Both the position numbers and the translations under genes were made by a program. DNA of 64,000 bases from IMG/VR virus record IMGVR_UViG_3300020577_005397, positions 2,746 to 66,745 of that record. One strand, written 5' to 3'. This document shows positions 5,923 through 58,849 of the stretch, piece after piece (the stretch's first letter is position 1; each line of letters starts with the position of its first letter). The notes under the pieces were generated by a model. It was given only the letters and a program-made list of their open reading frames with translations, had not been told where the DNA came from and made no database searches. This stretch comes from a virus (Duplodnaviria > Caudoviricetes).

Positions 5923-6009
5923 TGGAGGCGGCGGGAATCGAACCCGCGTTTCAGGAGGCCGTGCGGACTCGTCGCCCAGCCGTGCCTACCTGACTGACCA
6001 TTCGCCCCC
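5923..6009 (-). ncRNA. Mini tmRNA-like RNA (tRNA-like domain only, Ala identity)
   Basis: Acceptor GGGGGCG/CGCCTCC+A with G3.U70; stemless D region; helix TCAGG-T-AGGC/GCCT-CCTGA closed by a short hairpin; AAC linker; T arm GCGGG-TTCGATT-CCCGC. Confidence 0.8.
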
Positions 6010-6099
6010 TGGAGGCCCTGCCCCGATTTCAAGTCGGTTGGGGCCTTTCGGGAGAGCATTGCGAGAACCTTCAATTGGAACCCGCTGTCTCTCGCCTGA

Positions 6100-6173
6100 G
6101 TCGCGCAAAGGTATTGACCCTTTTCACTGGCGGGTCTGGGCAGAGACACCAGTGCGTTTCCTAACGGCGCGAC
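6100..6173 (-). ncRNA. 74-nt tRNA-like cloverleaf (non-canonical)
   Basis: 7-bp GTCGCGC/GCGCGAC stem; CGTT/AACG and CACTGG/CCAGTG arms; T-like arm AAAGG-GTCAATA-CCTTT adjoining the 3' strand. Confidence 0.5.
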
Positions 6174-6181
6174 GTTCAAAC

Positions 6182-6406
6182 CTAGTTCTTCACTTCGACG
6201 CTCTCGACTCCTACGAACGAGAGTTTGGTCAGGTCCATGAACTGGATCTTGACCGACTCGTCTTCCACGACCAGGGACTCGATCCGGCCCGACGGCCCGA
6301 GCTTGATCTCCTTGACCGGCTCAGTCCGCTGCAACGTGCCCCGGATCGGCACCCCGTCCACGACCATGACCAGCCGGTACTCCAGGTGAGTCAGCGCCGT
6401 GGTCAC
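6182..6406 (-). CDS. Hypothetical protein (beta-rich)
   Basis: GTG start overlaps the upstream stop (GTGA); C-terminal part of track ORF 6182..6565. Confidence 0.65.
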   Translation of the reverse strand: MTTALTHLEYRLVMVVDGVPIRGTLQRTEPVKEIKLGPSGRIESLVVEDESVKIQFMDLTKLSFVGVESVEVKN

Positions 6407-7554: not shown

Positions 7555-7814
7555 TGCACCCTTCCTTCCAGTATGTCCATGATGGCTCGATGCACCCCCA
7601 GCTCGGTGGACAGGGTTTTCCAGCAGTTCCCGTCATTGGGCTTCCAGATCCACCAGTTCTTCTTGTTCCCCGCAAACCGCCCTCCGCGCTTTGTCCCGTT
7701 GCGGCGCTCAATGACGATTTCAGGACAGTAGCCGGTGTCCCCGAACTCGCGCTCCAGCGAGATGGTGAGTGCCCCAAACGCGGGCAGATAGGTGATCTTG
7801 GTGATCTTGCGCAT
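7551..7814 (-). CDS. Small Trp-rich early protein, leaderless
   Basis: ATG 7 nt after TATAAT. Confidence 0.75.
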   Translation of the reverse strand: MRKITKITYLPAFGALTISLEREFGDTGYCPEIVIERRNGTKRGGRFAGNKKNWWIWKPNDGNCWKTLSTELGVHRAIMDILEGRVQ

Positions 7815-7821
7815 GGAGGCC

Positions 7822-7851
7822 ATTATACAGCAGGCGTGCTACTCGTGTCAA
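7822..7851 (-). promoter_or_regulatory. Sigma70-like promoter
   Basis: TTGACA-18-TATAAT with TG extension. Confidence 0.8.
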
Positions 7852-8212
7852 CCCCCGAGATCCACCGGTCGATCCTGACTGCGGCCATTTCCTCGAAGAC
7901 AATGAACGTCATGTTGTCGGGGTACTGGAGGGAGTATTCACTCCCGAAGTTCGTGACCCGCAGGAGCCCGCCCGGCCCTACAGCGTCCAGCCAATGCCCG
8001 GCCTCCGTGTAGTATAGGCCATAGGTCAGATGTAGCACGCCGCCGAAGGTAATCTGCACAGGCAACGTGGTCCCATTGACCCGTATGGTGGACCATGTTT
8101 TCTGGACGATCCCCTGCTGCAAGTTGTACTCTTGCAGGGCCTTTTCGAGATCGGCGGTGTTGATTTGTTGAGTGTAGTTTGTCGCCACAGCGCGATAGGT
8201 CGTTGCCATCAA
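7823..8212 (-). CDS. Hypothetical protein
   Basis: GGAGA SD, coupled to neighbours. Confidence 0.7.
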   Translation of the reverse strand: MMATTYRAVATNYTQQINTADLEKALQEYNLQQGIVQKTWSTIRVNGTTLPVQITFGGVLHLTYGLYYTEAGHWLDAVGPGGLLRVTNFGSEYSLQYPDNMTFIVFEEMAAVRIDRWISGVDTSSTPAV

Positions 8213-8929: not shown

Positions 8930-9500
8930 GCCTGGGGCGGATCGGCTATACGGCGGCGGTGGAGTATTATGTAAAGGACACTTTTGGCTGGGGCCAGATT
9001 GTATTTGGGGTGGTCCAGGTCCCATACCCGCGTATGCACATTTGTTTTCGAGCGCGCCCTGCGTTATCTAATAGCATGTTAGATAATGCTATACCCGCCA
9101 TATGTAGTGCTTTTAGGTTTGCCTAATGCCCACGTATAGTGCTTTTAGGACTCTATAACGTGCCAGTCGAGAGCGTAGGGGGCAGGGGCCATAGGGGCAG
9201 GGGCCATACAAGAACGGCCCTAGACGGCCCTACACGGGGCAGGGCGGGACTAGTGGCTATAGGGATAGCCATAGTGCGAGATAAATGGCACAGTGGGGCT
9301 GCTAGGGGCCTTTACAGGGGCCTTATAGAGTGTACCGCCGAATCGGGCCCTGTTCTCCTGGGCGTCCTGGGCGCGTGCATGGGCGTCGTCTCCAGGAGGG
9401 CCCGTAAGGCCCTGGGCGTCAGAACAGGGCGTTCTAAGGCCCAGGGGAATCACGAAGGCCCTGGGACACTCGCCCAGGGCCTTTAGCACGGGCCTAACAA
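8930..9500. repeat. Non-coding repeat-rich block (terminus/pac/origin candidate)
   Basis: GCGTTATCTAA-N7-TTAGATAATGC palindrome at 9061-9089; TAGTGCTTTTAGG at 9105 and 9137; dense GGCCC/GGGCC/CCTGGG. Confidence 0.55.
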
Positions 9501-9511
9501 GGGCGAGGACC

Positions 9512-10072
9512 TTAGATGTCTAGGCCCTGTTCGCACTCGTCGATGTAGGACGACGGCGGACACGATTCGGGCCCGATGCACCGTAGCAGACTGGGAACAT
9601 CCTCGCCCAGACGGCGAAGAGTCGTCAACCGTTCCAGGGCGTTCATATAGCGCCATTCTGAATTGGCGTACTCCTTCGCTTCGTCCCACCGGAGTTCACC
9701 GTAGGCGTCCTCATCTAGGATGGGATAGTCGGCCAGTCTCCTCTGGATTCGTTCTGCCTCCTCGATGGCGCCCAGGTTCGAAGGGTGGATGGCGATCCAG
9801 GAGACCCAACCGACAGCCCAATGGGATTCGGTCACTTCAATAACGTCTTGCCAGTCCTCCCCATGTTCGTCCTCGCTGGCAGGATGCCACTGGGCGAGGG
9901 CGAGAAGTGACTCACGTTGGGCTTGCCAGTTGGAACGGTCTAGCGGGCCCGAATCCCGATGCACGCCGACGGGAGAACAGAACCAACCGTTCCAATTCTC
10001 GCCAAGATAGAAGTCAGGATGTCTCCAGGGCGTCAACGTTGTCGGGCGTGAGAGTGTTTGTGTCGTATTCAT
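9512..10072 (-). CDS. Conserved phage hypothetical protein (RDS..LDRSNW / ESHWAVGWV type)
   Basis: Motifs recognised from phage hypotheticals; CAGGA SD; own promoter. Confidence 0.75.
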   Translation of the reverse strand: MNTTQTLSRPTTLTPWRHPDFYLGENWNGWFCSPVGVHRDSGPLDRSNWQAQRESLLALAQWHPASEDEHGEDWQDVIEVTESHWAVGWVSWIAIHPSNLGAIEEAERIQRRLADYPILDEDAYGELRWDEAKEYANSEWRYMNALERLTTLRRLGEDVPSLLRCIGPESCPPSSYIDECEQGLDI

Positions 10073-10119
10073 TGTCCTGTTTCCTGGGCCCTGGGTGAAC
10101 GTTCCTGGGCCCGAATTGC

Positions 10120-10147
10120 ATCATAGCGGAATCGCCCAAAGAGTCAA
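10120..10147 (-). promoter_or_regulatory. Sigma70-like promoter
   Basis: TTGACT-16-TATGAT. Confidence 0.7.
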
Positions 10148-10171
10148 GTACATAATGTACCAGTTTATAGA

Positions 10172-10357
10172 CTAGTCACTGTCTACACTGTCGGGCCCTG
10201 CCCAGTGTCCAGAGTGACGACGATACCGGATTCTCTGTTCCTGGGCCCTGGGCGTCGTGTTTGGGCGTCCTCGCATGGTCTCCAGGGCCCGACAGAGGGC
10301 CCAGGACGCTAACAGCCATAGCATGACCAGGAACGGAATAGCGAACAGGGCGAACAT
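10172..10357 (-). CDS. Small membrane-anchored protein
   Basis: AGGAG SD, N-terminal hydrophobic segment. Confidence 0.5.
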   Translation of the reverse strand: MFALFAIPFLVMLWLLASWALCRALETMRGRPNTTPRAQEQRIRYRRHSGHWAGPDSVDSD

Positions 10358-10821
10358 GGTAGCACTCCTGGGCCCAGGGCCCGAACTCGGACATCGGGCC
10401 CAGGATAACGGATTCCGGGTTTCCTGTTCGATAGCATCGGTTGGTATCGGTTGGGCCCGTCGTCAGGAACGGATTCCTGTGCGCGAATCGCTCGATAAAA
10501 TAAGCACGATTCGCCCTTCGCTGTAACTAGTTGTTAGGATTCCGGGCCCTGATGGAATCGCCTATATACGCGATATGGCATATACGGAATTTTGAAATTA
10601 GCCGAAAAAACAGGCCCGTTTTAGGCCCAGGGCCTATTTAGTGTCCGTGCGACAATAAGAGCAGAATCGATAAACATTAGACGGTTGTCTAATTGTTTTT
10701 TGGCCGGTTTGGGCCGGTATTTTTCACGTCTGGGCAGTTGGTTGACTCATGAGCCCGTTTGCATATGATGTCTTTTGTCGGTTGGTTGTTTGGTCCTGGG
10801 CCCGACAGAGGGCCCAGGACG
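10285..10821 (+). repeat. 24-nt exact direct repeat flanking an AT-rich segment
   Basis: GGGCCCGACAGAGGGCCCAGGACG at 10285-10308 and 10798-10821; ATTAGAC-GGTT-GTCTAAT palindrome near 10676-10693. Confidence 0.7.
10742..10769 (+). promoter_or_regulatory. Sigma70-like promoter of the rightward early unit
   Basis: TTGACT-16-TATGAT; spacer resembles that of the 14940 promoter. Confidence 0.7.
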
Positions 10822-10834
10822 TTAGGAGGGCCTT

Positions 10835-11182
10835 ATGCGCGAACTCGCCCAATTGGGCGAGACATTCGGAAACCGAATCACGTTCATAGAGTTCATCGAG
10901 ATTCCCTATGATGGGCGTCAGAACGTGAGATTCTACTTCGATAACGGACTCTGTATGTCGGTTGGGTGCAATGGCCGAACATACTCTGACCATTCCGAAG
11001 GACTCTACGAAATTGCTGTTATCGTCCTCAGAGACGATAACGGACACGTCCAACTGATGAACGTGTCCGAATGGCATGGAACAGTCCTAGGATGGCAGAA
11101 CGCTAACGAGATTCGTTATTGGATGGGAAGGGTTTCGAGCGAAGGCTTCGCACTATCGAACGAAGACATAAGGCCCGGTTGA
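10835..11182 (+). CDS. Hypothetical early protein (GLYEIAV type)
   Basis: AGGAGG SD. Confidence 0.75.
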   Translation: MRELAQLGETFGNRITFIEFIEIPYDGRQNVRFYFDNGLCMSVGCNGRTYSDHSEGLYEIAVIVLRDDNGHVQLMNVSEWHGTVLGWQNANEIRYWMGRVSSEGFALSNEDIRPG

Positions 11183-11237
11183 CGGGCCCACCATAGGCCA
11201 TAACTCTAGCGGTTGTGTCCTATGGTGGGAATGTCAA
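11179..11237. repeat. Inverted repeat with 26-bp imperfect arms
   Basis: TTGACGGGCCCACCATAGGCCATAAC versus reverse complement TTGACATTCCCACCATAGGACACAAC; loop TCTAGCG. Confidence 0.8.
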
Positions 11238-11260
11238 GTAACATCAGGAGGATTCCGACT

Positions 11261-11653
11261 ATGTGCGAAAAGTTTAACGGTTGGAGTGACCATGCTACAT
11301 GGTGCCTGTCAATGATTGTTGACGGCAACTACAGCGAGGGCGATTATCACTACTGGCAGGAGACCGTCAACGAACTCGCCCAGAACGCCGACGATCAGGA
11401 TGAACATGCGCGCATGGTCACGGACGCCCTAAGCGACTGGTACGACTCTGCGGTTGACGAACTCGGAATCGCCGGATTCTTCGGCGATATGATGGCGAAT
11501 CCTGAGTTCTGGGAAGTTGGCGAGTCACTCGTTCGCGGTTGGCGCGAGGAGGGCGGCAAATACGCCAGTGAGGAGGAGGAGGACGAAGACAAGGACCTGA
11601 CACCGGATGATGACGACAAAGACAACGGAGAGGGCGGTTTCATGGTTGACTAG
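11261..11653 (+). CDS. Highly acidic early protein (NGW..ATW type)
   Basis: AGGAGG SD; FNGWSDHATW N-terminus; about 37 D/E versus 7 K/R by hand count. Confidence 0.8.
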   Translation: MCEKFNGWSDHATWCLSMIVDGNYSEGDYHYWQETVNELAQNADDQDEHARMVTDALSDWYDSAVDELGIAGFFGDMMANPEFWEVGESLVRGWREEGGKYASEEEEDEDKDLTPDDDDKDNGEGGFMVD

Positions 11654-11720
11654 GGCAGCGGTTGTACTCTGACATTCTGGGCCTAACTAGCGGTTGGGCC
11701 CAGTAGTGAGAGGATAACCT

Positions 11721-11945
11721 ATGAAGATTTATGTTCTGACACAATCAGAAGGCAACGACAGTGAGGAAGGCATTCCCGCCTACTTCACGCCGATAAAGGC
11801 CTTCTACACAGAAGGCGAAGCGGTTGCATGGCGGGATGGTCTGCTAGAGTCGTGGCAGACAGCAGCCAATGAGCACTGGTTGATGCTTCTGCACCCACTG
11901 ACACCGGCCCATTTTGAGATTACGGCCGTTGACCTGGAGCAGTGA
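11721..11945 (+). CDS. Small early hypothetical protein
   Basis: GAGG SD. Confidence 0.7.
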   Translation: MKIYVLTQSEGNDSEEGIPAYFTPIKAFYTEGEAVAWRDGLLESWQTAANEHWLMLLHPLTPAHFEITAVDLEQ

Positions 11946-11946
11946 C

Positions 11947-12231
11947 ATGGATTACAAAGGTTTCCAAGTCCCTGACAGGGACGAACTAGAGCGGTTGGAG
12001 GAACTCGGACAATTGTTCCTATCCAGCGTCTACACTGACGATGGCACGGGCATTCGGGGGATGGTCAGGGTCTGGCTCTGGAAACAGCCTCATGCTATGT
12101 ACGGCGACTGCTATTGTGTCCAGCGATGGGACAGCCAGAACGGCAATGCTAAGGCTCTGACCTTCTGGTACTGGAGCGGTGCGGTTGTTGAGGCATGGCG
12201 CAAGGAACTTGACGGTCTTCTGGAGGGATGA
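11947..12231 (+). CDS. Small Trp-rich early protein
   Basis: GGAG SD, 1 nt after the upstream stop. Confidence 0.7.
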   Translation: MDYKGFQVPDRDELERLEELGQLFLSSVYTDDGTGIRGMVRVWLWKQPHAMYGDCYCVQRWDSQNGNAKALTFWYWSGAVVEAWRKELDGLLEG

Positions 12232-12232
12232 C

Positions 12233-12439
12233 ATGAAAATGTATGTCTGGTACGCGGTTGACGATCCAAACCGGTATTATCAGGGGACCATCATCACCGT
12301 CGCGGATAACCTGGAGGAGGCGAAAGCCAAAATCAGGCGGTTGGGGATGCTCGGTGAAAATGCGTCAAAGCACGATCCTGATGAAGTGATTGACGTGAAC
12401 AGCAAGGATTGTGCCGTCTATGTGGACGGCGGGGAATGA
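12233..12439 (+). CDS. Small early hypothetical protein
   Basis: GGAGG SD, coupled. Confidence 0.7.
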   Translation: MKMYVWYAVDDPNRYYQGTIITVADNLEEAKAKIRRLGMLGENASKHDPDEVIDVNSKDCAVYVDGGE

Positions 12440-12663
12440 GGATTGAAACCATGGATTACTTGACAATGGTGACAGCAGCGAACGATTACGACGGGGTAGC
12501 CGGGGAAGTGCGGTTGCTCTGTGTCGTCGCTCAGAACGGGGACGATGCCAAGAAACAAGCCCTCTGGCACTGGTACATCAAGGGCGTGCCAGTCGGGCCC
12601 ACTGACCTTCTGATTGCCGTTCCCTTGATGGACGTCTGGGACGGCCTGACGGTGACGCCATGA
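12436..12663 (+). CDS. Small early hypothetical protein
   Basis: ATGA overlap with the upstream stop. Confidence 0.6.
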   Translation: MRIETMDYLTMVTAANDYDGVAGEVRLLCVVAQNGDDAKKQALWHWYIKGVPVGPTDLLIAVPLMDVWDGLTVTP

Positions 12664-12750
12664 GCCCTGAAGCAGCATCAATCATCGCTCTAGCGGTTGG
12701 GACTGTTTGGGCCCTTTACACACTCATTCGGGAACGTTGAGGAGGAGAAC

Positions 12751-13038
12751 ATGCGCGCAATCAAGACGATGTACTATGTTGTGGACTGCACTCCTGAGCA
12801 CATTCTGTGCGGTTCAGACGATCCAGAGGAGCAGGGCTGTTTTCTGTGCTCCTCGTGCTACAGAGACGAACGTGAACGCGGTTCGGTTCAGTGGTTGGAG
12901 ACCCTGAAGGGCCCGAACGCCCTGAACGTTCGCTGTGCGGTTTGCGAGTACGAGGACACGGGCGAACGCGACGAGGACGAGGACGAACTGCCCGAACTAT
13001 GGGAATCGCTCCTGGGCGTCGTGTTTGACGAGGACTGA
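12751..13038 (+). CDS. Small Cys-rich (two CxxC) acidic protein, putative Zn-binding
   Basis: GAGGAG SD; CSSC and CAVC. Confidence 0.7.
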   Translation: MRAIKTMYYVVDCTPEHILCGSDDPEEQGCFLCSSCYRDERERGSVQWLETLKGPNALNVRCAVCEYEDTGERDEDEDELPELWESLLGVVFDED

Positions 13039-13041
13039 CGG

Positions 13042-13072
13042 CGGTTGACACCTAACACTCTGGGCCTTATCA
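13042..13072 (+). promoter_or_regulatory. Sigma70-like promoter overlapping a CTGGGCC hairpin
   Basis: TTGACA-17-TATCAT. Confidence 0.65.
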
Positions 13073-13126
13073 TGAGGCGATAGGGCCCAGCAGTTAGCGG
13101 TTGACCTAGTAACAGGAGAAACGATC

Positions 13127-13798
13127 ATGCAGAAGAAGACGGTTGAGTACGAACTGTTCTCGTTCGATGAACTCGAATCGGATGCCCAGGACCGGGCCCG
13201 CGAGAACTGGTATCAGCGGCAAATGGACGACTTCGAGTTCCACATGGAGTGCTTTGTCGATCCCGACAACTGGCCGACGATCCTCAAGGCCCTGGGCTTC
13301 ACGCAGAACACTCGCCGGGCCGTTCTGATGTCCGGCAGGACCGTCCACAAGCCGGACTTCCAATACTCGTTCGGCGGTGGGCCGGAGTTCGTGTCCTTCG
13401 ATGGCACCTGGATGCCTGACGACTTCGACCGAGATGCGGTTGAGGAGATTCGCAAGGACCGGCCCACCGACACGCGGTTGCACTCGATCCTGGACGACGC
13501 CCACCAACTATGGGTGGTTGCCGGACAGGGCGACTTGTACACCATCAAGGGCGAGACTGACCGACGCGGTTGGGATGTCGAACTCGAAGAACGGGCCCAG
13601 GACGACGACGGGGAGACCATCGAATCGGATGACGTGTCGCACAATCTGCTGTCCCTCTGCCACGACCTGGACGTGTGGATGACTCGTCAGGTGAACGACG
13701 AACTGAAGTACCAGACTAGTGACGAAGCCCTGACCGAATGGGCGAACCGCGAGGGCGACGGCGGTTGCATCTTCCTGAGCAACGGGGAGACTCTGTAG
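13127..13798 (+). CDS. Acidic early protein (FSFDELESDAQDRARENW type)
   Basis: AGGAG SD; N-terminal motif seen in phage hypotheticals; D/E-rich. Confidence 0.8.
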   Translation: MQKKTVEYELFSFDELESDAQDRARENWYQRQMDDFEFHMECFVDPDNWPTILKALGFTQNTRRAVLMSGRTVHKPDFQYSFGGGPEFVSFDGTWMPDDFDRDAVEEIRKDRPTDTRLHSILDDAHQLWVVAGQGDLYTIKGETDRRGWDVELEERAQDDDGETIESDDVSHNLLSLCHDLDVWMTRQVNDELKYQTSDEALTEWANREGDGGCIFLSNGETL

Positions 13799-13873
13799 AC
13801 CTGGACGGTCGATCCCTGGGCCTCAATCCCAGTTGGGGCCCAGCATTCGGGAGTTCAGTCAGAGGAGACTAAC

Positions 13874-14239
13874 ATGGAAGACAAAGTGTACACAATCATC
13901 TATCGCGGCACTGACCTGGGAACGATGCGGCACTGCGTCGTCGTGGCTTGCAATATCCGGGGACAGGACTTTGAGGCCGCCAACGTCGCGGTCCTGCCGA
14001 TGGCGGAGCGTCGAAACGTCAGACTCGACGGCTATGTGCAGCACGTCTTCGAGTACAACGGCGGCATGGGACACCTGATGATCTTCGACAATCACGCGGT
14101 TGCGGGGTGCTCTGCCGGGGGCATCCTGGACATTGAACCGGACACGACCGGGGGGATGCCCGTCGTTCTCCGCTACTGGGAAGAAGATGACAGCAGCGAA
14201 GATGCCATCCGCTACGGGAGTGCCTTTCGTGAAAAATAG
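13874..14239 (+). CDS. Hypothetical early protein
   Basis: GAGGAG SD. Confidence 0.75.
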   Translation: MEDKVYTIIYRGTDLGTMRHCVVVACNIRGQDFEAANVAVLPMAERRNVRLDGYVQHVFEYNGGMGHLMIFDNHAVAGCSAGGILDIEPDTTGGMPVVLRYWEEDDSSEDAIRYGSAFREK

Positions 14240-14414
14240 AAACGAGTTCTACTGGGGCCTGTTCGGCGTGCTTGCAGCAACTGCATGGCTCTACGTCATC
14301 GTCGGTGCCATCACGTTCCGGGGTGAATTGCGGGAGAATGGCAGCGGTTGGTACTCGCTCTACCATCAGTCCCGCGTCGAGTTCTGTCTGCCGTTCAATT
14401 CGTGCGGGGAGTAG
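14229..14414 (+). CDS. Small membrane protein
   Basis: Hydrophobic segment; GTG start inferred. Confidence 0.45.
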   Translation: MKNRNEFYWGLFGVLAATAWLYVIVGAITFRGELRENGSGWYSLYHQSRVEFCLPFNSCGE

Positions 14415-14508
14415 TCGCTGGACGGCCTTCCCCGGCCCCTAACCCGTCGCGGTTGGGGGCCCGGCTGGAGAACAGCCCGGCGGTTGAGCAGTACATGGAA
14501 GGAGGCGC

Positions 14509-14715
14509 GTGATGCAATTCGCCCTGCACTACGCATCGGGACGGGCAGAGGACTTCGAGTTCGTCACGATCAACACGGTCGAAGACTTGATGCGGTTGGC
14601 ACAGGAGAGGGGTCATTCCATTCTGGTCAACCCGCCCTCTGACTTTGCCGTGGATCGCCCAGAACAGGCATGGCACTACTGGAATCTGGAAGTCGTGGAC
14701 GACTACCTTGACTGA
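14509..14715 (+). CDS. Small hypothetical protein
   Basis: AGGAGG SD. Confidence 0.7.
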   Translation: MMQFALHYASGRAEDFEFVTINTVEDLMRLAQERGHSILVNPPSDFAVDRPEQAWHYWNLEVVDDYLD

Positions 14716-14725
14716 GGAGGAACAC

Positions 14726-14920
14726 ATGTACACGAAAGAGCAGCTTGCCGATAAGATGGACACGATTATCGGGTTTCTGAATCTGGCGGAGGCGGCCAGC
14801 AGAGACATCGTGGACCCAGCGATGCAGCAGGCCGTTGAGGCTCTGACACAGGCGATTGCAGGGGTTGCCCTGATCGTCACGGACACGCAGGGCCTACGCG
14901 CAAACCCGCAGGACGACTGA
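14726..14920 (+). CDS. Small helical protein, resembles 16146..16328
   Basis: GAGGAGG SD; DPAMQQAVEALT versus DPATVAALESLT. Confidence 0.7.
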   Translation: MYTKEQLADKMDTIIGFLNLAEAASRDIVDPAMQQAVEALTQAIAGVALIVTDTQGLRANPQDD

Positions 14921-14939
14921 AGGAACGCATTCCTGCCTC

Positions 14940-14968
14940 TTGACAAGGCGAGCCGTTTGACGTATGAT
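14940..14968 (+). promoter_or_regulatory. Sigma70-like promoter
   Basis: TTGACA-17-TATGAT. Confidence 0.8.
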
Positions 14969-15016
14969 ATCTCTTGTCGGTGCGGTTGGCGCACTGACAC
15001 AGTAACAGGAAAGCCG

Positions 15017-15241
15017 ATGGACGCCAAACTTCACAAGGAACTGAAAGCCCTACAGCGCAAGGCGGCCCGAACGTTCCGCAACACGCTGGACCTGGACGAC
15101 CAGATCGTCGCCATCGCCCTGCTGGCGGTTAGCCTGGGCATGGAGGCAGGTGACTACGAATCGGTCAAGGCGATGTGCCAAGTCGCGGAAAAGTATTCCG
15201 AGATCCGCGTTCTCAAGGGTCGCCTGAACGGCACCCCGTAA
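15017..15241 (+). CDS. Small helical protein
   Basis: CAGGA SD. Confidence 0.7.
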   Translation: MDAKLHKELKALQRKAARTFRNTLDLDDQIVAIALLAVSLGMEAGDYESVKAMCQVAEKYSEIRVLKGRLNGTP

Positions 15242-15253
15242 CAGGAGCTGAAC

Positions 15254-15496
15254 ATGCTTCACGTTTCATTCACGATCTACTTCAAGAGCAACGCCGACGT
15301 CAAGGCCGTGGTCCGGGCGGTTGAGCGGCTGGAGAAGCGAAGCGAGGTGGTCAGCGCCCATCAACTCTCCAACCAGCACGGCGGCACCGTCTACCAGTTC
15401 ACGGTGGCCGAAAGTCGGGCCGACATCTTCCAGGACGCGGTGCGCGGCGAGAAGGTCGTGCGCGAGTTCGGTCGCAGTGACCGGCAGGAGGACTGA
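15254..15496 (+). CDS. Small hypothetical protein
   Basis: AGGAG SD. Confidence 0.7.
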   Translation: MLHVSFTIYFKSNADVKAVVRAVERLEKRSEVVSAHQLSNQHGGTVYQFTVAESRADIFQDAVRGEKVVREFGRSDRQED

Positions 15497-15497
15497 C

Positions 15498-15722
15498 ATG
15501 GGCAAGAGACACCTGTACACGGTCGTAACCCTTGCCGTCAACGGCAATCACGTTGAGGCGTCGGCGGAAGTGGCGCTGGCCGACAACGAGAACGAGTTGC
15601 TGGGGTCGGCCTACCGCATGGCCGGGATCAAGTATCCCGGTGCCACCGTGGACGTGCGGGTGGGTCGGGTCAAGGATGCCGAGTTCCTGAAGGTGCTGCG
15701 GCAGTGGGCCAAGGAGAGCTGA
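15498..15722 (+). CDS. Small hypothetical protein
   Basis: AGGAGG SD, coupled. Confidence 0.7.
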   Translation: MGKRHLYTVVTLAVNGNHVEASAEVALADNENELLGSAYRMAGIKYPGATVDVRVGRVKDAEFLKVLRQWAKES

Positions 15723-15723
15723 C

Positions 15724-15879
15724 ATGCGAAATCTACTGCGCCTTGCCAATCTTGTGCTGTCCGTTGGGATCGTCCTCTTGGCCCTGACTCAGCTTCACAC
15801 CAATCCGGTTCTTTCGCTGGGCCTGAGTTCGATCATTCTTCTGATTCAGCTCACGTCACTTGAAAGGGACATGGAGTAA
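15724..15879 (+). CDS. 51-aa membrane protein (below the track cutoff)
   Basis: AGGAG SD; MRNLLRLANLVLSVGIVLLAL...; fills the operon gap exactly. Confidence 0.6.
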   Translation: MRNLLRLANLVLSVGIVLLALTQLHTNPVLSLGLSSIILLIQLTSLERDME

Positions 15880-15880
15880 C

Positions 15881-16144
15881 ATGCGCAAGTACACCTATCT
15901 GGAAAAGCCTGTGACGCTCGATCACGCCGAGGGAGAGGTTCTGGTTCTGTCTGACCTGAGCCGGAGCAAGGTCTACTACTTCACGGTGGCACGCGACGAG
16001 CACGGCAACGTGTTTTTCTACGACAAGCACAGCGGCACGACGTTCTTCGGCGCTATGGCGGCGGTTGAGGATGTTCCGGACCCGGATCTGGGGGCGGGGC
16101 CTGTGCTGGTCTGGAGACTGGCCGACGAAGAAAGCAAGGACTAA
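15881..16144 (+). CDS. Small hypothetical protein
   Basis: GGAG SD. Confidence 0.7.
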   Translation: MRKYTYLEKPVTLDHAEGEVLVLSDLSRSKVYYFTVARDEHGNVFFYDKHSGTTFFGAMAAVEDVPDPDLGAGPVLVWRLADEESKD

Positions 16145-16145
16145 C

Positions 16146-16328
16146 ATGGACGAACTGCTGAAGGACGAACTGAACGAAGATCTCAACAACGTGCTGGAGG
16201 GCGTAGAGGACATGAAAAGGCTCTGCGGCGAGGTCCGTGACCCGGCCACCGTTGCGGCGCTGGAGTCTCTCACTCGCATGGTTGATCTTCTGCACGGTGT
16301 TCTTGTGGATCTGGTGGAGAAAGCATGA
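16146..16328 (+). CDS. Small acidic helical protein
   Basis: AAGGA SD. Confidence 0.7.
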   Translation: MDELLKDELNEDLNNVLEGVEDMKRLCGEVRDPATVAALESLTRMVDLLHGVLVDLVEKA

Positions 16329-16495
16329 ACAAGAAGCTGCTGGACGAGTACATGGAGAAGCTGGAAGCCCTGAGCGACAAGGACACCGAACGGTGGCACG
16401 AGGCCGCCGACGAGGTGCTGTGCGATCTGCTTCGCAAGCTGGGCTACGGCCCGCTGGTGGACAAGTACGAGGCCGAAGCAAGGTGGTTCGGATGA
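16325..16495 (+). CDS. Small phage protein (DTERWHEAADEVLCDLLRKLGY type; below the track cutoff)
   Basis: Hand translation; overlapping start and stop on both sides. Confidence 0.7.
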   Translation: MNKKLLDEYMEKLEALSDKDTERWHEAADEVLCDLLRKLGYGPLVDKYEAEARWFG

Positions 16496-16607
16496 ACGAA
16501 GACAAGCTGATCCGTTACGCATTCTATGCGATGGGCTTTATCGCCGGGGTGGCCCTGGCGATGGCTATCGCTCGATTTCTGTGAGGCAACTAGAAAGGAC
16601 AACCGTA

Positions 16608-16928
16608 ATGAACGACACCATCAACCATCTCAATCAGGTCTCGAAGGAAGAGACCGCCCGCATGTTCTCGTCAGTCGAGGGCATCCCGTTCAGCACCGCC
16701 GAGGAGCAGAACGACGCCATGTTCGCGGCGGTGGACGGTGTTCTGACCAACGCCTCCCGGCTCATGGCCTTCGGCGCGAAGCTCGAAGACATGCCGGTCA
16801 TGCAGCTCGGCGCTCTTCTGCACGCGCTCGTCGCGCTGACCAAGGACGGCGACTACCAGACGCTACGTGCCGTGGGCGAGATCGTGCAGCGGGGCCTGAT
16901 CTACAACCTCTCGAAACAGCCGCACTGA
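16608..16928 (+). CDS. Hypothetical helical protein
   Basis: AAAGGA SD. Confidence 0.7.
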   Translation: MNDTINHLNQVSKEETARMFSSVEGIPFSTAEEQNDAMFAAVDGVLTNASRLMAFGAKLEDMPVMQLGALLHALVALTKDGDYQTLRAVGEIVQRGLIYNLSKQPH

Positions 16929-16962
16929 TCGGCACAGTCCACAACTTCATAGGGAAAAGCGA

Positions 16963-16986
16963 AGGCCCCCTCGATCGAGGGGGCCT
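16963..16986. terminator. Hairpin terminator between convergent units
   Basis: AGGCCCCCTC-GATC-GAGGGGGCCT; same arms as 38053-38082. Confidence 0.7.
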
Positions 16987-55632: not shown

Positions 55633-55993
55633 CTTGCCCTGGCTTTCGCTTCGCAGTCGGCAACTTGATCTTCACGGGCGGTGTCTGGAGATCGACCGCC
55701 TGTCGCTGCACGACCACCTCCCACTGCCCCGTGTTGAGGAGCCACTGAACGTCCTCCACCGGAACTTCTTTATACAGGTCCGTGAGGTTGTTCCCGCCCC
55801 AGTACACAGCGCCCGAAGGCGTTCGGCCCGGACCCCCGAAGGGAATCGAGCCTTGCTGTGGGCCAATGAACTTGAGTCGAGCCATGTTGTCTCCAGTATC
55901 TGCGGCAAGCATAGCCAGGGGATCGAGCCCCAGGAACTCCTGCCGCGCATTGAGGATGTCTTGAACGCCGCTTTGGCCGCAACCGCAACCCAT
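55586..55993 (-). CDS. Small protein with an MGCGCG N-terminus
   Basis: AGAGGAAAGG SD. Confidence 0.7.
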   Translation of the reverse strand: MGCGCGQSGVQDILNARQEFLGLDPLAMLAADTGDNMARLKFIGPQQGSIPFGGPGRTPSGAVYWGGNNLTDLYKEVPVEDVQWLLNTGQWEVVVQRQAVDLQTPPVKIKLPTAKRKPGQDADPKSEQPTEPEPA

Positions 55994-55994
55994 A

Positions 55995-58196
55995 TCAGCC
56001 TTTCCTCTGCCGTGTACGGGTGCTGGTGGACTGTCGAACGTAGAGAAGGGGCTGGGGAAGTCTCACTCCGTAATGCCCTTCTTGATACATTCTAACATAG
56101 AAATCCCTGTCCTCCAGGTGTTTTGCAGCCGTCCACGCAGGAATCCATTCCTTGGGGATCAACGCCGTCACGGGATTCAGCAGGGTTTCGCCCGCTTCTG
56201 GCCCATAATCCGGGCTCTCCATGACTTCTTCTGTTTCGTCCACAACCCAGTCGGTGTACACATACAGCCCTGTTTGACGATGCAGAGCCAGCATACGTTC
56301 GAGAGCTTCGGGGTGGAGATAGTCGTCGGCGTCCAGGTAGACCACGTATCGTCCCTGGGCCAGCTCTGTTCCTGCCTGTCGTTTAGGTCCGGGCTGTCCA
56401 TCTTTCACCAGATACCGAGCGTAGGGCTTGTGGGGTGGGGTCTGGAAGCCTCGATTGACGACCAGGATCAGCTCCCAGTTTCGGAAGGTCTGTCCTTCCA
56501 TGCAGGTGAAAATACTGTCGAGAAGGTGTTCGTGGGCCTTTCCTACGGGCACTACCACCGAGATCTCAATGGGGTAGGCCGAGACTACATGATAGCCTTG
56601 AACCGGAGCCGCCAACGGGAACAGCTTGTCCTGCACCCAGGGGAGCCAAGTATCGATTGGGACGTATTGCTTCGTGCGACTGGCCGAGCCGGAATGCAGT
56701 CTGTAGTTGAACAGGCCGTCTTCGGTCACACGTCGGGCAGTGAAGCCCGTAGCCAGCCCACGAGTCCAGAACTCCGCGTCCTCGCCCGGAGCATATTCTT
56801 GTCGATAACCTCCGGCGCGTTGCCACATCTCCTTGCGGAACATGGCCCCAGCCGGGATGCAATTTTGCGGAGGAACGCCACCAGCCGCCTGAACGTCCCA
56901 CGAGAACTCCGGTGGCCACTCGGCCAGCCGGGGCTCTACGCCCTCCTGAATCATCATCAGTCCGGTGTAGGCAACACCGAGGGCATACTCTCTGCGGAAC
57001 GCGGGGATGAGGGTATCCGCGTAGTTAGGAGCGAGGTAGTCATCAGCGTCCAGGCATACGATCAGGTCTCCGGTAGCAGCGGCGATACCATCGTTTCGAG
57101 CAGCCGCCACTCCCTCATTATCTCGCTTTGAGATGAGCTTGTCGGGCGTGTGAGCACGAATGACTTCCAGGCTGTTGTCGGTCGAGGCATCATCCACGAC
57201 CACCACCTCAGCTCCGTTTGCCTTCGCGCTGTCAATCGCCTGACCCACGTACTTGCTGTAGTTATGATTTGTAACGACAACCGACAGCTTGTGGGGCCGC
57301 TTCATGGAGTACGCATCGTGATAACAACGTGCGTACTCTCGTGCGGCACGGTCCCAGGTGAAGTGCTGGGCTGTCTGTCGAGCTGCCGCCGAGCACTCGT
57401 CATAGTGCTCCAAGATCCAATGGTAGCCCCGCAGCAGGTCGTCATAGTCATAGGGCCGACACAGGTAGCCCTCAAACTTGTGCGTGACGAGATCCCGAGT
57501 GCCGCCCCAGTCAAAGCCCAGAATAGGCTTGCCCATCGCCATCGCTTCCACGGTGCCAATCCCGAAGGTCTCTTCCGTGGTGGCGAGGTACATCAGCGAG
57601 TTGGACAATACCTCGCGCATGTCCCCGTCCCCCAGCGGTCCGAGGACGCGCAGAGACGAGGGGCCTGACTTTGTGAAGGTACTCCAAACGTCAATGCCCC
57701 CGGCTGCAAGCCAGTCCGCAGGCGAGGGGTCACACACGTCTTGAGGTCGGTTCTTGTTCCAGAGGACATAGGAGCCCTTGGACGTGCGGTGATTCGAGTA
57801 GAGAGGAACGTCGATGCCGTGTCCAATCACACGCGGCGTAATGCGCATGTCTCGCTGGAAAGGATAGGCAACCCAGTCAGATGGGACCGTGATGATCTTG
57901 GCGTTCCGGGAGCTTTCGATGATCTCCTCGTTGATCCCGTGGTGCCAGCGGTCATAGCGGAACCCGCGCTCCTCGGCGTCGGCTGTCCAGTAGATGCCGT
58001 GCAGGTGAAGCACGTCGATCCAGGGCAACTCGCCCATGCGCGTGTGTGAGGCGATGACCTGGGCCTGATCCGAGGAAGCAACCAGCTCGATGTCGTACTT
58101 AGGCAGGTACTTGTACTGTGCGTGAACGACCCGGCCAATACCATTGTTTGCTTCGATCTGTTCCGGGTGCGGCCACAGATACACCTTCAGCGCCAT
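55995..58196 (-). CDS. Multidomain glycosyltransferase (GT4 plus two GT2 domains)
   Basis: EETFGIGTVEAMAMGKP; SVVVTNHNY, VVDDASTD, CLDADD; second SVVVPVG..YLDADD. Confidence 0.88.
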   Translation of the reverse strand: MALKVYLWPHPEQIEANNGIGRVVHAQYKYLPKYDIELVASSDQAQVIASHTRMGELPWIDVLHLHGIYWTADAEERGFRYDRWHHGINEEIIESSRNAKIITVPSDWVAYPFQRDMRITPRVIGHGIDVPLYSNHRTSKGSYVLWNKNRPQDVCDPSPADWLAAGGIDVWSTFTKSGPSSLRVLGPLGDGDMREVLSNSLMYLATTEETFGIGTVEAMAMGKPILGFDWGGTRDLVTHKFEGYLCRPYDYDDLLRGYHWILEHYDECSAAARQTAQHFTWDRAAREYARCYHDAYSMKRPHKLSVVVTNHNYSKYVGQAIDSAKANGAEVVVVDDASTDNSLEVIRAHTPDKLISKRDNEGVAAARNDGIAAATGDLIVCLDADDYLAPNYADTLIPAFRREYALGVAYTGLMMIQEGVEPRLAEWPPEFSWDVQAAGGVPPQNCIPAGAMFRKEMWQRAGGYRQEYAPGEDAEFWTRGLATGFTARRVTEDGLFNYRLHSGSASRTKQYVPIDTWLPWVQDKLFPLAAPVQGYHVVSAYPIEISVVVPVGKAHEHLLDSIFTCMEGQTFRNWELILVVNRGFQTPPHKPYARYLVKDGQPGPKRQAGTELAQGRYVVYLDADDYLHPEALERMLALHRQTGLYVYTDWVVDETEEVMESPDYGPEAGETLLNPVTALIPKEWIPAWTAAKHLEDRDFYVRMYQEGHYGVRLPQPLLYVRQSTSTRTRQRKG

Positions 58197-58849
58197 CAGA
58201 AGCCTCGATCCTGCCACGAATGGCCGACATGATCCCACAATGTTTCCGTGCGTAGGTTGACGGGAATGCCCACAACCGGGGCCATCAGATCCAGCTTGCC
58301 CAGGTCGATACAGTTGTGGCAGAAGCCCTCCTCAGTCTCACCGAGCTTCAGGCCCTCTGGGTACAGCCCATAGTACGCATGGAAGGAAATGTTCTTGAGG
58401 TGCGGGCGATTGCTGGGGATGTACACTTCCGGGCTGTCCCAGCGCACTCGCCAGTAGTTCCCCACGAGGCGGGCATCGAACGAGTGAGCGGCCACGCCCA
58501 TGAGCCGAATCCACTTCACCGGGTTGAGCGGATCGCGGAGCACCTTGATATGGTCATCCACGTCCAGCGGATCTCGAAGCCAGTGGTCATCGTCCATCTG
58601 GAGGATGATGTCGGTCTCCTGGTTGGCCGCTCGCAGTAGCGTGTTCAGGTTGTTGCCCAGGAACCGGCTCTCGGGCTTGATGACAGTCACGTTGGGCTGT
58701 CCGTCGAACTTCTCGGCTACGTTGTCCGTGCCTGCGTCCCCAATGAAGAACTTGATCTCCTCCTGGGTAATCAGGTTGCTCTTGATACGGACACACGTTT
58801 CCCACAGCAGATCACGTCGATTGAAGGTGGGGAGGACTACCGCGATCAT
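58196..58849 (-). CDS. GT2-family glycosyltransferase
   Basis: VVLPTFNR, QMDDDH; TGATG overlaps on both sides. Confidence 0.85.
   Translation of the reverse strand: MIAVVLPTFNRRDLLWETCVRIKSNLITQEEIKFFIGDAGTDNVAEKFDGQPNVTVIKPESRFLGNNLNTLLRAANQETDIILQMDDDHWLRDPLDVDDHIKVLRDPLNPVKWIRLMGVAAHSFDARLVGNYWRVRWDSPEVYIPSNRPHLKNISFHAYYGLYPEGLKLGETEEGFCHNCIDLGKLDLMAPVVGIPVNLRTETLWDHVGHSWQDRGF

Follow-up and report, generated by a model that had tools for sequence, protein, structure and literature searches.

A one-strand array of the heptamer GCGGTTG, selected at the nucleotide level, marks the putative early-gene arm of an uncultured tailed phage

The window analysed here, a 64,000-nucleotide stretch of a tailed-phage genome (Duplodnaviria; Caudoviricetes) corresponding to bases 2746-66745 of the 66,745-bp IMG/VR viral contig IMGVR_UViG_3300020577_005397, carries 26 copies of the asymmetric heptamer GCGGTTG (four G, two T and one C), all on the + strand and all within 11209-16067, in an arm of small genes that is probably expressed early. 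The word is under selection at the nucleotide level, is kept in relatives whose arms can hardly be aligned, and is depleted from the rest of the genome. A preliminary description of the window, made from its letters, had proposed that the copies are either host Chi-like sites or oriented binding sites controlling or protecting the first-expressed DNA. Oriented control sites are compatible with all the findings reported below, whereas the Chi-like proposal gained no support from them. Our tentative preference is for an oriented binding or control site read on DNA, which would resemble a stoperator without being one.

An exact scan of the window and of the whole record matched every one of the 26 copies previously listed (Table 1). 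As had been claimed, there is no reverse copy within 11209-16067, nor any further + strand copy in the window or in the complete record, which contains a single other occurrence, in the opposite orientation and far from the arm. The array has a density of 5.4 copies per kb and is densest over its first 3.4 kb, 23 of the 26 copies falling within 11209-14598. Dinucleotide-preserving shuffles predict 9.74 +/- 2.95 occurrences per 64 kb on both strands, leading to ~0.37 for one strand of the 4.86-kb interval, a figure that agrees with the ~0.5 estimated earlier. No other 7-mer of the genome comes near GCGGTTG in local clustering.

We found no conservation in the 20 bases on each side of the copies (flank information 0.07 bits), and each single-mismatch variant of the word occurs at most four times in the arm, compared to 26 exact copies. 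The unit is thus a sharply defined heptamer and not a piece of a longer repeat. Such exact-word specificity is what a sequence-specific reader typically shows. None of the copies overlaps with a Shine-Dalgarno sequence. Three resemblances were considered and set aside. A promoter element is not indicated, as there is no -10-like signal at a fixed distance, though two copies overlap -35 hexamers. The likeness of GCGGUUG to the 3' end of 16S rRNA (the word is present in helix 45 of the E. coli-type molecule) was judged coincidental, since the downstream match does not extend. The likeness to the GCGGT core of Haemophilus uptake sequences was ruled out by composition and by the missing flanks.

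The gene calls place 17 copies in coding sequence, in frame 0 (nine), frame 1 (four) and frame 2 (four), and the other nine in spacers, which bears out the earlier remark that the word occurs between genes and in all three frames. Its density is 3.5 times higher in spacers (11.2 per kb) than in coding sequence (3.2 per kb), an excess that fits a 'more is better' signal held back by coding constraint. Shuffling the arm genes among synonymous codons gives 1.63 +/- 1.20 expected coding copies and shuffling their codon order gives 0.70 +/- 0.82; none of 1000 shuffles reached the 17 observed. The enrichment thus persists when codons are preserved, and these shuffles strongly support the earlier contention that selection bears on the nucleic acid and not on the protein, a conclusion also backed by the retention of the array across unalignable arms, by slowed substitution and by synonymous gains (see below). 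The array might instead have no function and be a by-product of composition, of codon or dipeptide usage, or of a decayed repeat family. The strong positive GC skew of the arm would suit such an origin. However, it is already refuted by the codon shuffles, by cross-arm conservation and by purifying selection on the copies, whose presence in every frame and in spacers, with uninformative flanks, also speaks against it; we give it next to no chance.

TerL of this phage has many metagenomic relatives, and in four phages of its sublineage exact GCGGTTG occurs 19-28 times in a 4-6 kb block of putative early genes that are otherwise unrelated, with one dominant strand. Besides the window, these are L016, from a different sample and with a TerL ~80% identical, which has 20 forward copies and one reverse copy in 4.45 kb; L186, a mosaic relative with 19 forward and no reverse copies; and L187, a strain 97-98% identical that carries an 860-bp insertion and has 28 forward copies and one reverse copy, the latter being a hairpin loop flipped between unchanged stems. 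The arms of the window and of L016 are alignable over one ~220-bp gene only, and only four L016 arm proteins have a BLASTP match in the window arm. Despite these near-unalignable arms, the two phages share the same word, on the same strand and in the same arm.

Comparison with L186 gives access to the turnover of individual copies. Alignable DNA of the two phages diverges by 9.5%, while the motif positions show 3 substitutions in 133 where 12.6 are expected (P=0.001). Sixteen of the 19 aligned copies are intact and three were lost through point changes; conversely, two copies were gained in L186 (one of them also in L187) via a synonymous GCC-to-GCG change, and newly inserted gene cassettes carry their own GCGGTTG copies. 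These data are direct evidence for selection on the word, and on copy number more than on single copies. The arm is strongly mosaic among strains, with short islands of similarity centred on motif-bearing spacers. We also observed that the L187 insertion (L187:12742-13603, 860 bp, two extra small genes) lies exactly at a motif-bearing spacer hairpin (window 14461), and that several other arm cassettes are replaced in lower-depth variants from run X2.

Beyond the arm, GCGGTTG is depleted, with one copy compared to 8.3 expected from synonymous shuffles (P=0.003), and the hexamer GCGGTT is entirely absent from the + strand of the other 57 kb. The depletion is significant for the antisense orientation (0 versus 5.1 expected, P=0.002) and not for the sense orientation (1 versus 3.2). 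It would be expected if a misplaced site were harmful.

We screened three panels for similar arrays: 80 loci anchored on the MoxR-type gene (1.28 Mb), 80 TerL relatives of 41-63% identity, and 138 loci anchored on the gene of a 186-aa protein encoded next to the arm (Table 1). No flank-free, dispersed, one-strand heptamer array of comparable strength was found in these panels, indicating that the array is an innovation of a narrow sublineage. Its absence from TerL relatives at or below 63% identity and from 80 unrelated loci fits a lineage-specific, phage-encoded reader. Apparent hits in L040, L025 and L147 proved to be repeats, either coding or in tandem, whose flanks are conserved and whose spacing follows multiples of three, as did, among the matches listed, almost all of the at least 120 triple-copy hits in IMG/VR. 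At L354:9667-13403, in a phage of 66% GC, TGGAAAC occurs 19 times forward and never in reverse, with weak flank conservation and a spacing that does not follow multiples of three; this run is possibly an array of the same sort, built on another word. A sparse run of TGCCGGT (11:1 over 6.3 kb) was seen in L015.

Two more distant loci with a homologue of the 186-aa gene, L363 and L448, contain tight, one-strand, mostly non-coding, iteron-like arrays with the consensus G-GCGGTT. In L363 (7880-9014; same contig as L296), ~25 one-strand copies with ~48-bp spacing lie directly upstream of genes for a PD-(D/E)XK exonuclease and an ERF recombinase, and in L448 10-bp tandem units and scattered copies occupy ~7700-8070 of the reverse complement (~5950-6320 as stored). 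Chance is an unlikely source of the 6-mer core common to the window, L363 and L448; the architecture differs, and the link between array and 186-aa gene in L363 and L448 is confounded by how the loci were picked. The TerL relatives provided two further observations. The 20.6-kb locus L126 shows an extreme excess of the palindrome ACGGCCGT and its 7-mers, at ~70-76 per strand. Some TerL relatives (L011:10001-12619 of the L016 phage; P0002, P0005, P0015) measure 760-870 aa as against about 500 aa and match the window TerL over just 56-94% of its length, one also matching the LAGLIDADG family, which suggests possible intein or homing-endonuclease insertions.

Whether the word is read on DNA or on RNA was considered from its placement and from predicted structure. 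Several copies lie in stable intergenic hairpins (Table 1). The L016 counterpart of the hairpin at 11189-11227 carries ACGGTTG, and in the hairpin at 11677-11703 compensatory stem changes in L016 leave the word unchanged, whereas in L187 the loop is flipped. These conserved hairpins, the enrichment in spacers and the location of 26 of 26 window copies and 18 of 20 L016 copies on the sense strand of early units are what we would expect if GCGGUUG were a tag on early mRNAs, through which a sequence-specific endoribonuclease, RNA-binding protein or small RNA would limit or time expression; depletion from other genes would then prevent mis-targeting. However, the predicted RNA accessibility of the copies in three arms is no higher than that of composition-matched controls. 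Moreover, two L016 copies lie past a clear bidirectional terminator, on the same strand as the others and antisense inside the convergent genes, so that polarity follows the DNA rather than the local mRNA. A tag on mRNA also sits poorly with a depletion whose significant part is antisense. The complementary word CAACCGC is in no phage transcript except an mRNA that runs antisense to the single reverse copy (55980), no family was matched in an Rfam search, and no RNase was recognised, most early open reading frames being orphans.

T4 RegB, which inactivates early mRNAs, targets GGAG mostly in Shine-Dalgarno regions. The likeness lies in a short sense-strand word of early transcripts and in the proposed timing of early expression. 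The differences are that RegB recognises 4 nt at the ribosome-binding site, whereas the word described here has 7 nt, is never in a ribosome-binding site and is mostly coding; in addition, its copies are not predicted to be accessible, and we recognised no RegB-like nuclease in this phage. Overall, accessibility, the L016 terminator, the antisense depletion and the Rfam result moderately favour a DNA-level signal over an RNA one, and we regard an early-mRNA tag as somewhat unlikely.

In the oriented control site that we prefer, GCGGTTG would be a positively selected, orientation-specific cis word marking the early-gene arm of this lineage. A sequence-specific factor, probably phage-encoded and lineage-specific, would read each copy, either in duplex DNA or on an exposed non-template strand, and the many same-oriented sites would jointly affect the arm in a polar way. 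Most plausibly, this would be a timed shut-off or an insulation of transcription carried out by the host's RNA polymerase, in the manner of stoperators. Copy number would outweigh any single copy, leading to the pile-up in spacers, hairpin apices and synonymous sites, and the word would be excluded from other regions, in which it would do harm.

The nearest analogue is provided by the stoperators of cluster A mycobacteriophages (L5 gp71, TipsytheTRex repressor), asymmetric 13-bp sites located in promoters and short intergenic spaces genome-wide in temperate phages and read by a two-domain immunity repressor, with a helix-turn-helix and a stoperator domain (PMC9283540). They establish that oriented, multi-copy blocks to elongation exist in phages (PMC9283540). 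As with stoperators, there are more than 20 asymmetric sites per genome and their orientation is tied to transcription (26:0 here; 20:1, 19:0 and 28:1 in the relatives); stoperators act on the elongating host RNA polymerase, an action that for GCGGTTG is proposed by analogy. The array does not consist of stoperators as such, one of the options raised in the preliminary description, since the word has 7 bp with random flanks instead of 13 bp, is 65% intragenic (17 of 26) instead of intergenic, and keeps to a single arm of 4.9 kb, with depletion outside it, instead of being spread genome-wide. In addition, no immunity repressor or integrase was found among the ~50 proteins scanned.

Several points weigh against an oriented control site. 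Seven base pairs are short for a stand-alone protein site. The scan of ~50 proteins revealed no integrase, repressor or helix-turn-helix family and the phage thus looks virulent, which makes a lysogeny-type silencer unlikely and obliges us to assume a shut-off factor of the lytic cycle. The copies beyond the L016 terminator are a small sample (n=2), and all other copies are on the sense strand of transcribed DNA, compatible with an RNA-level reader. Finally, the conserved proteins encoded near the arm in array-bearing phages lack a recognisable nucleic-acid-binding domain, and structure prediction yielded no fold match for the 223-aa protein (pLDDT, a model-confidence score, of 63) and an unusable model for the 186-aa protein (pLDDT 44).

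These conserved proteins are nevertheless the candidates for a reader (Table 1). The family of the 74-aa acidic protein was found in array-bearing phages only. Relatives of the 186-aa protein number in the hundreds among metagenomes of soil, freshwater and sludge, and the invariant residues of the family include an S-H-W-A-V-G-W block and a D-Y-P-x-L-D-E block; we consider the 186-aa protein a speculative candidate. A 61-aa protein and the MoxR/VWA pair are also conserved near the arms of array phages. Searches of the Atlas, of PDB profiles and of Pfam with the candidate proteins returned nothing, the 186-aa family having no Pfam or PDB relative.

The Chi-like proposal supposes an island of sites for the host RecBCD, AddAB or AdnAB enzyme which, in one orientation, would stop degradation from a right-hand double-strand end and load recombinase. 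Known Chi sites, including AGCGG and GAAGCGG, are G-rich and asymmetric, and the enzyme recognises them as it comes from a double-strand end on their 3' side. GCGGTTG is likewise a short, G-rich, asymmetric word, strictly oriented, sharply specific and present in any reading frame; the DNA-level behaviour in L016, an orientation that runs with transcription and with the rise in cumulative GC skew from ~8-10 kb, and the high mosaicism of the arm around motif-bearing spacers would all suit it. However, Chi sites are over-represented and replication-skewed throughout the host genome, and compared with its reversed control GCGGTTG is not over-represented in any of 156 candidate-host genomes, five of them metagenome-assembled genomes (MAGs) that carry TerL relatives and 151 of them Chloroflexota. 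In the best case of over-representation (G101), the word ranks 284 of 5,226 with a strand split of 45:32, and its counts are unremarkable in two of the Chloroflexota genomes, G043 and G150. MAGs with TerL relatives belong to the Chloroflexota (3 of 7), Acidobacteriota, Saccharibacteria and others. One-strand runs that appeared in Chloroflexota genome listings were discarded as an artefact of listing order, a control word listing alike.

Other observations also argue against a Chi island. Over the other 57 kb the word is depleted, and is thus neither neutral nor enriched, and TerL relatives at or below 63% identity, which presumably face similar nucleases, lack an array of any word. The phage has RecA-like and RuvC-like genes of its own, and we saw no sign of a genome end beside the arm, whose contig depth is not doubled. 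To our knowledge, Chi-exploiting phages neither confine Chi to a 5-kb island nor avoid it elsewhere. We consider a Chi-like island unlikely.

The array could alternatively serve DNA entry or protection, the oriented sites loading a KOPS/SRS-like translocase or a protective coat on the leading segment, the first to enter the cell, until anti-defence genes are expressed. Its confinement to one ~5-kb arm adjoining a 1.9-kb palindrome-rich non-coding region that is a possible terminus, a density that peaks at the promoter-proximal end, its polar, DNA-level character and, more weakly, the likely takeover and anti-defence genes of the arm are consistent with such a role. KOPS/SRS, read by FtsK/SpoIIIE, are similarly G-rich, polar 7-8-mers recognised on duplex DNA by a translocating motor, but they are chromosome-wide and skewed toward dif instead of forming a local array, and we know of no link between them and phage DNA. 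The contig depth of the arm is not doubled as expected from a long terminal repeat, and the arm is therefore not a collapsed repeat of the T5 type; T5 itself has nothing comparable in its first-step-transfer DNA. DNA entry should not suffer from forward copies elsewhere, yet none is present. Such a signal appears quite unlikely to us.

Still less probable is a role in the phage's own recombination, in which the copies would act as hotspots or mark boundaries and promote the exchange of early cassettes. The arms are mosaic between strains, with junctions or similarity islands on the motif-bearing spacers at 12678-12713, 14441-14461 and 11660; the phage encodes RecA-like and RuvC-like proteins; and the GCGGTT-core arrays of L363 adjoin exonuclease and ERF genes. 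However, gene boundaries are where junctions generally fall, and spacers are rich in the motif in any case; the association is thus confounded. Two-thirds of the copies are intragenic, and recombination predicts neither the strict polarity nor the depletion elsewhere. An orientation bias imposed by Type III or Type ISP restriction (of the T7 versus EcoP15I type) was rejected: the copies do lie in one orientation, but the word is ~10-fold enriched and reverse copies are tolerated.

Features of the region are collected in Table 1, the gene map being derived from a self-trained coding model. The ends of the contig overlap by 77 bp, indicating that the record was assembled as a circle, and metagenomes from wastewater, rivers and activated sludge contain the phage. 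Its replication arm encodes a primase-like protein, a DnaB-like helicase, PolA, and RecA-like and RuvC-like proteins. A search with the window among cultured phages gave no nucleotide match; PolA and TerL of the nearest cultured relatives are only ~25% identical, the window proteins being weakly like their actinophage counterparts. The GCGGTTG array begins ~440 bp downstream of promoter P1, past the first gene. The three strong sigma70-type promoters, the small orphan genes and the position of the arm suggest that it is expressed early and carries takeover genes. Its proteins match no PHROG or Pfam family, except for a sub-threshold match of the second arm gene (11261-11653, +) to the Thoeris inhibitor Tad4 (18 bits for a cut-off of 25; E 0.0035).

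Table 1. Coordinates of the GCGGTTG copies and of neighbouring features, numbered from the first base of the window.
Feature	Position	Strand	Basis or remark
GCGGTTG copies (starts)	11209, 11450, 11535, 11658, 11690, 11820, 11991, 12181, 12254, 12337, 12510, 12693, 13041	+	exact scan
GCGGTTG copies (starts), continued	13097, 13436, 13474, 13566, 13761, 14096, 14344, 14449, 14480, 14592, 14982, 15317, 16061	+	exact scan
Sole GCGGTTG beyond the arm	55980-55986	-	exact scans; sense in a late gene
Minus-strand genes including portal and TerL	up to 10072	-	gene model and annotation
186-aa protein	9512-10072	-	divergent from the arm; widespread uncharacterised phage family
Divergence region, 1.9 kb, non-coding, GGGCCC-rich	8930-10830		almost free of open reading frames
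Promoter P1, sigma70-type, TTGACT-16-TATGAT	10742-10769	+	sequence scan; head of the arm
Arm of ~20 small orphan genes, carries the array	10835-16928	+	self-trained gene calls
Spacer hairpin; in its inner helix, the 3' side and the apex consist of copy 11209	11189-11227	+	predicted, -29 kcal/mol, z -5.6
Spacer hairpin, 12-bp stem, contains copy 11690	11677-11703	+	folding and comparison
74-aa acidic early protein (putative)	11721-11945	+	best-conserved arm gene, 75-82% identical in L016 and L186
Internal promoter P2, sigma70-type, TTGACA-17-TATCAT	13045-13073	+	-35 overlaps copy 13041
223-aa early protein (putative)	13127-13798	+	in all four arms, 27-91% identity; gene holds four copies
Spacer hairpin with copy 14449	14434-14461	+	island of retained similarity at an inter-strain mosaic junction
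Internal promoter P3, sigma70-type, TTGACA-17-TATGAT	14940-14968	+	leader holds copy 14982
Bidirectional terminator-like hairpin	16960-16986		between the arm and the convergent genes
Convergent genes, including DUF2201/VWA and MoxR-type AAA proteins	right of the arm	-	annotation

Within the divergence region are a direct repeat of ~24 nt, near 10283 and near 10796, and AT-rich palindromes; two sigma70-type promoters, at 10147 (-) and 10742 (+), point away from each other, and several contigs from other runs break in the region. The cumulative GC skew reaches its minimum at ~8-10 kb. The region could be an origin, or a packaging or terminus region. Two observations concern other parts of the genome. 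Many palindromic words of the restriction type, with 6-14 copies expected, never occur outside 10800-16950; the missing 7-mers contain AAGCTT, AGGCCT, CACGTG, CCWGG, CCCGGG or CCGCGG, and this suggests strong avoidance of restriction sites. Large multi-domain glycosyltransferases (GT1 and GT2) are encoded in the structural block (window 55995-58238, -; also in L014/L015), hinting at virion glycosylation.

We found no paper in which both GCGGTTG and 'phage' occur, and a broader full-text search returned nothing relevant; a one-strand word array of an early arm was not found described as a device in these full-text searches. The oriented control site might be one instance of a more general phage device, a possibility that we consider doubtful, in which each lineage would write its own polar early-arm word, exclude it elsewhere and read it with a lineage-specific factor. 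This factor would act on all of the early arm together, to shut it off, insulate it or protect it; word and reader would co-evolve, and new cassettes would have to gain the word to join the arm.

Whatever its reader, the array is an unusually clean case of nucleotide-level selection overriding codon choice in ~20 orphan genes. If it is of the Chi type, it would reveal which sequence serves an uncultured host as recombination hotspot, and with it a new 'Chi island' strategy. If it is a control signal, it would raise the question of how the early programme is switched off, and would offer a sequence handle on the membership of early genes, for takeover and anti-defence, in uncultured phages.

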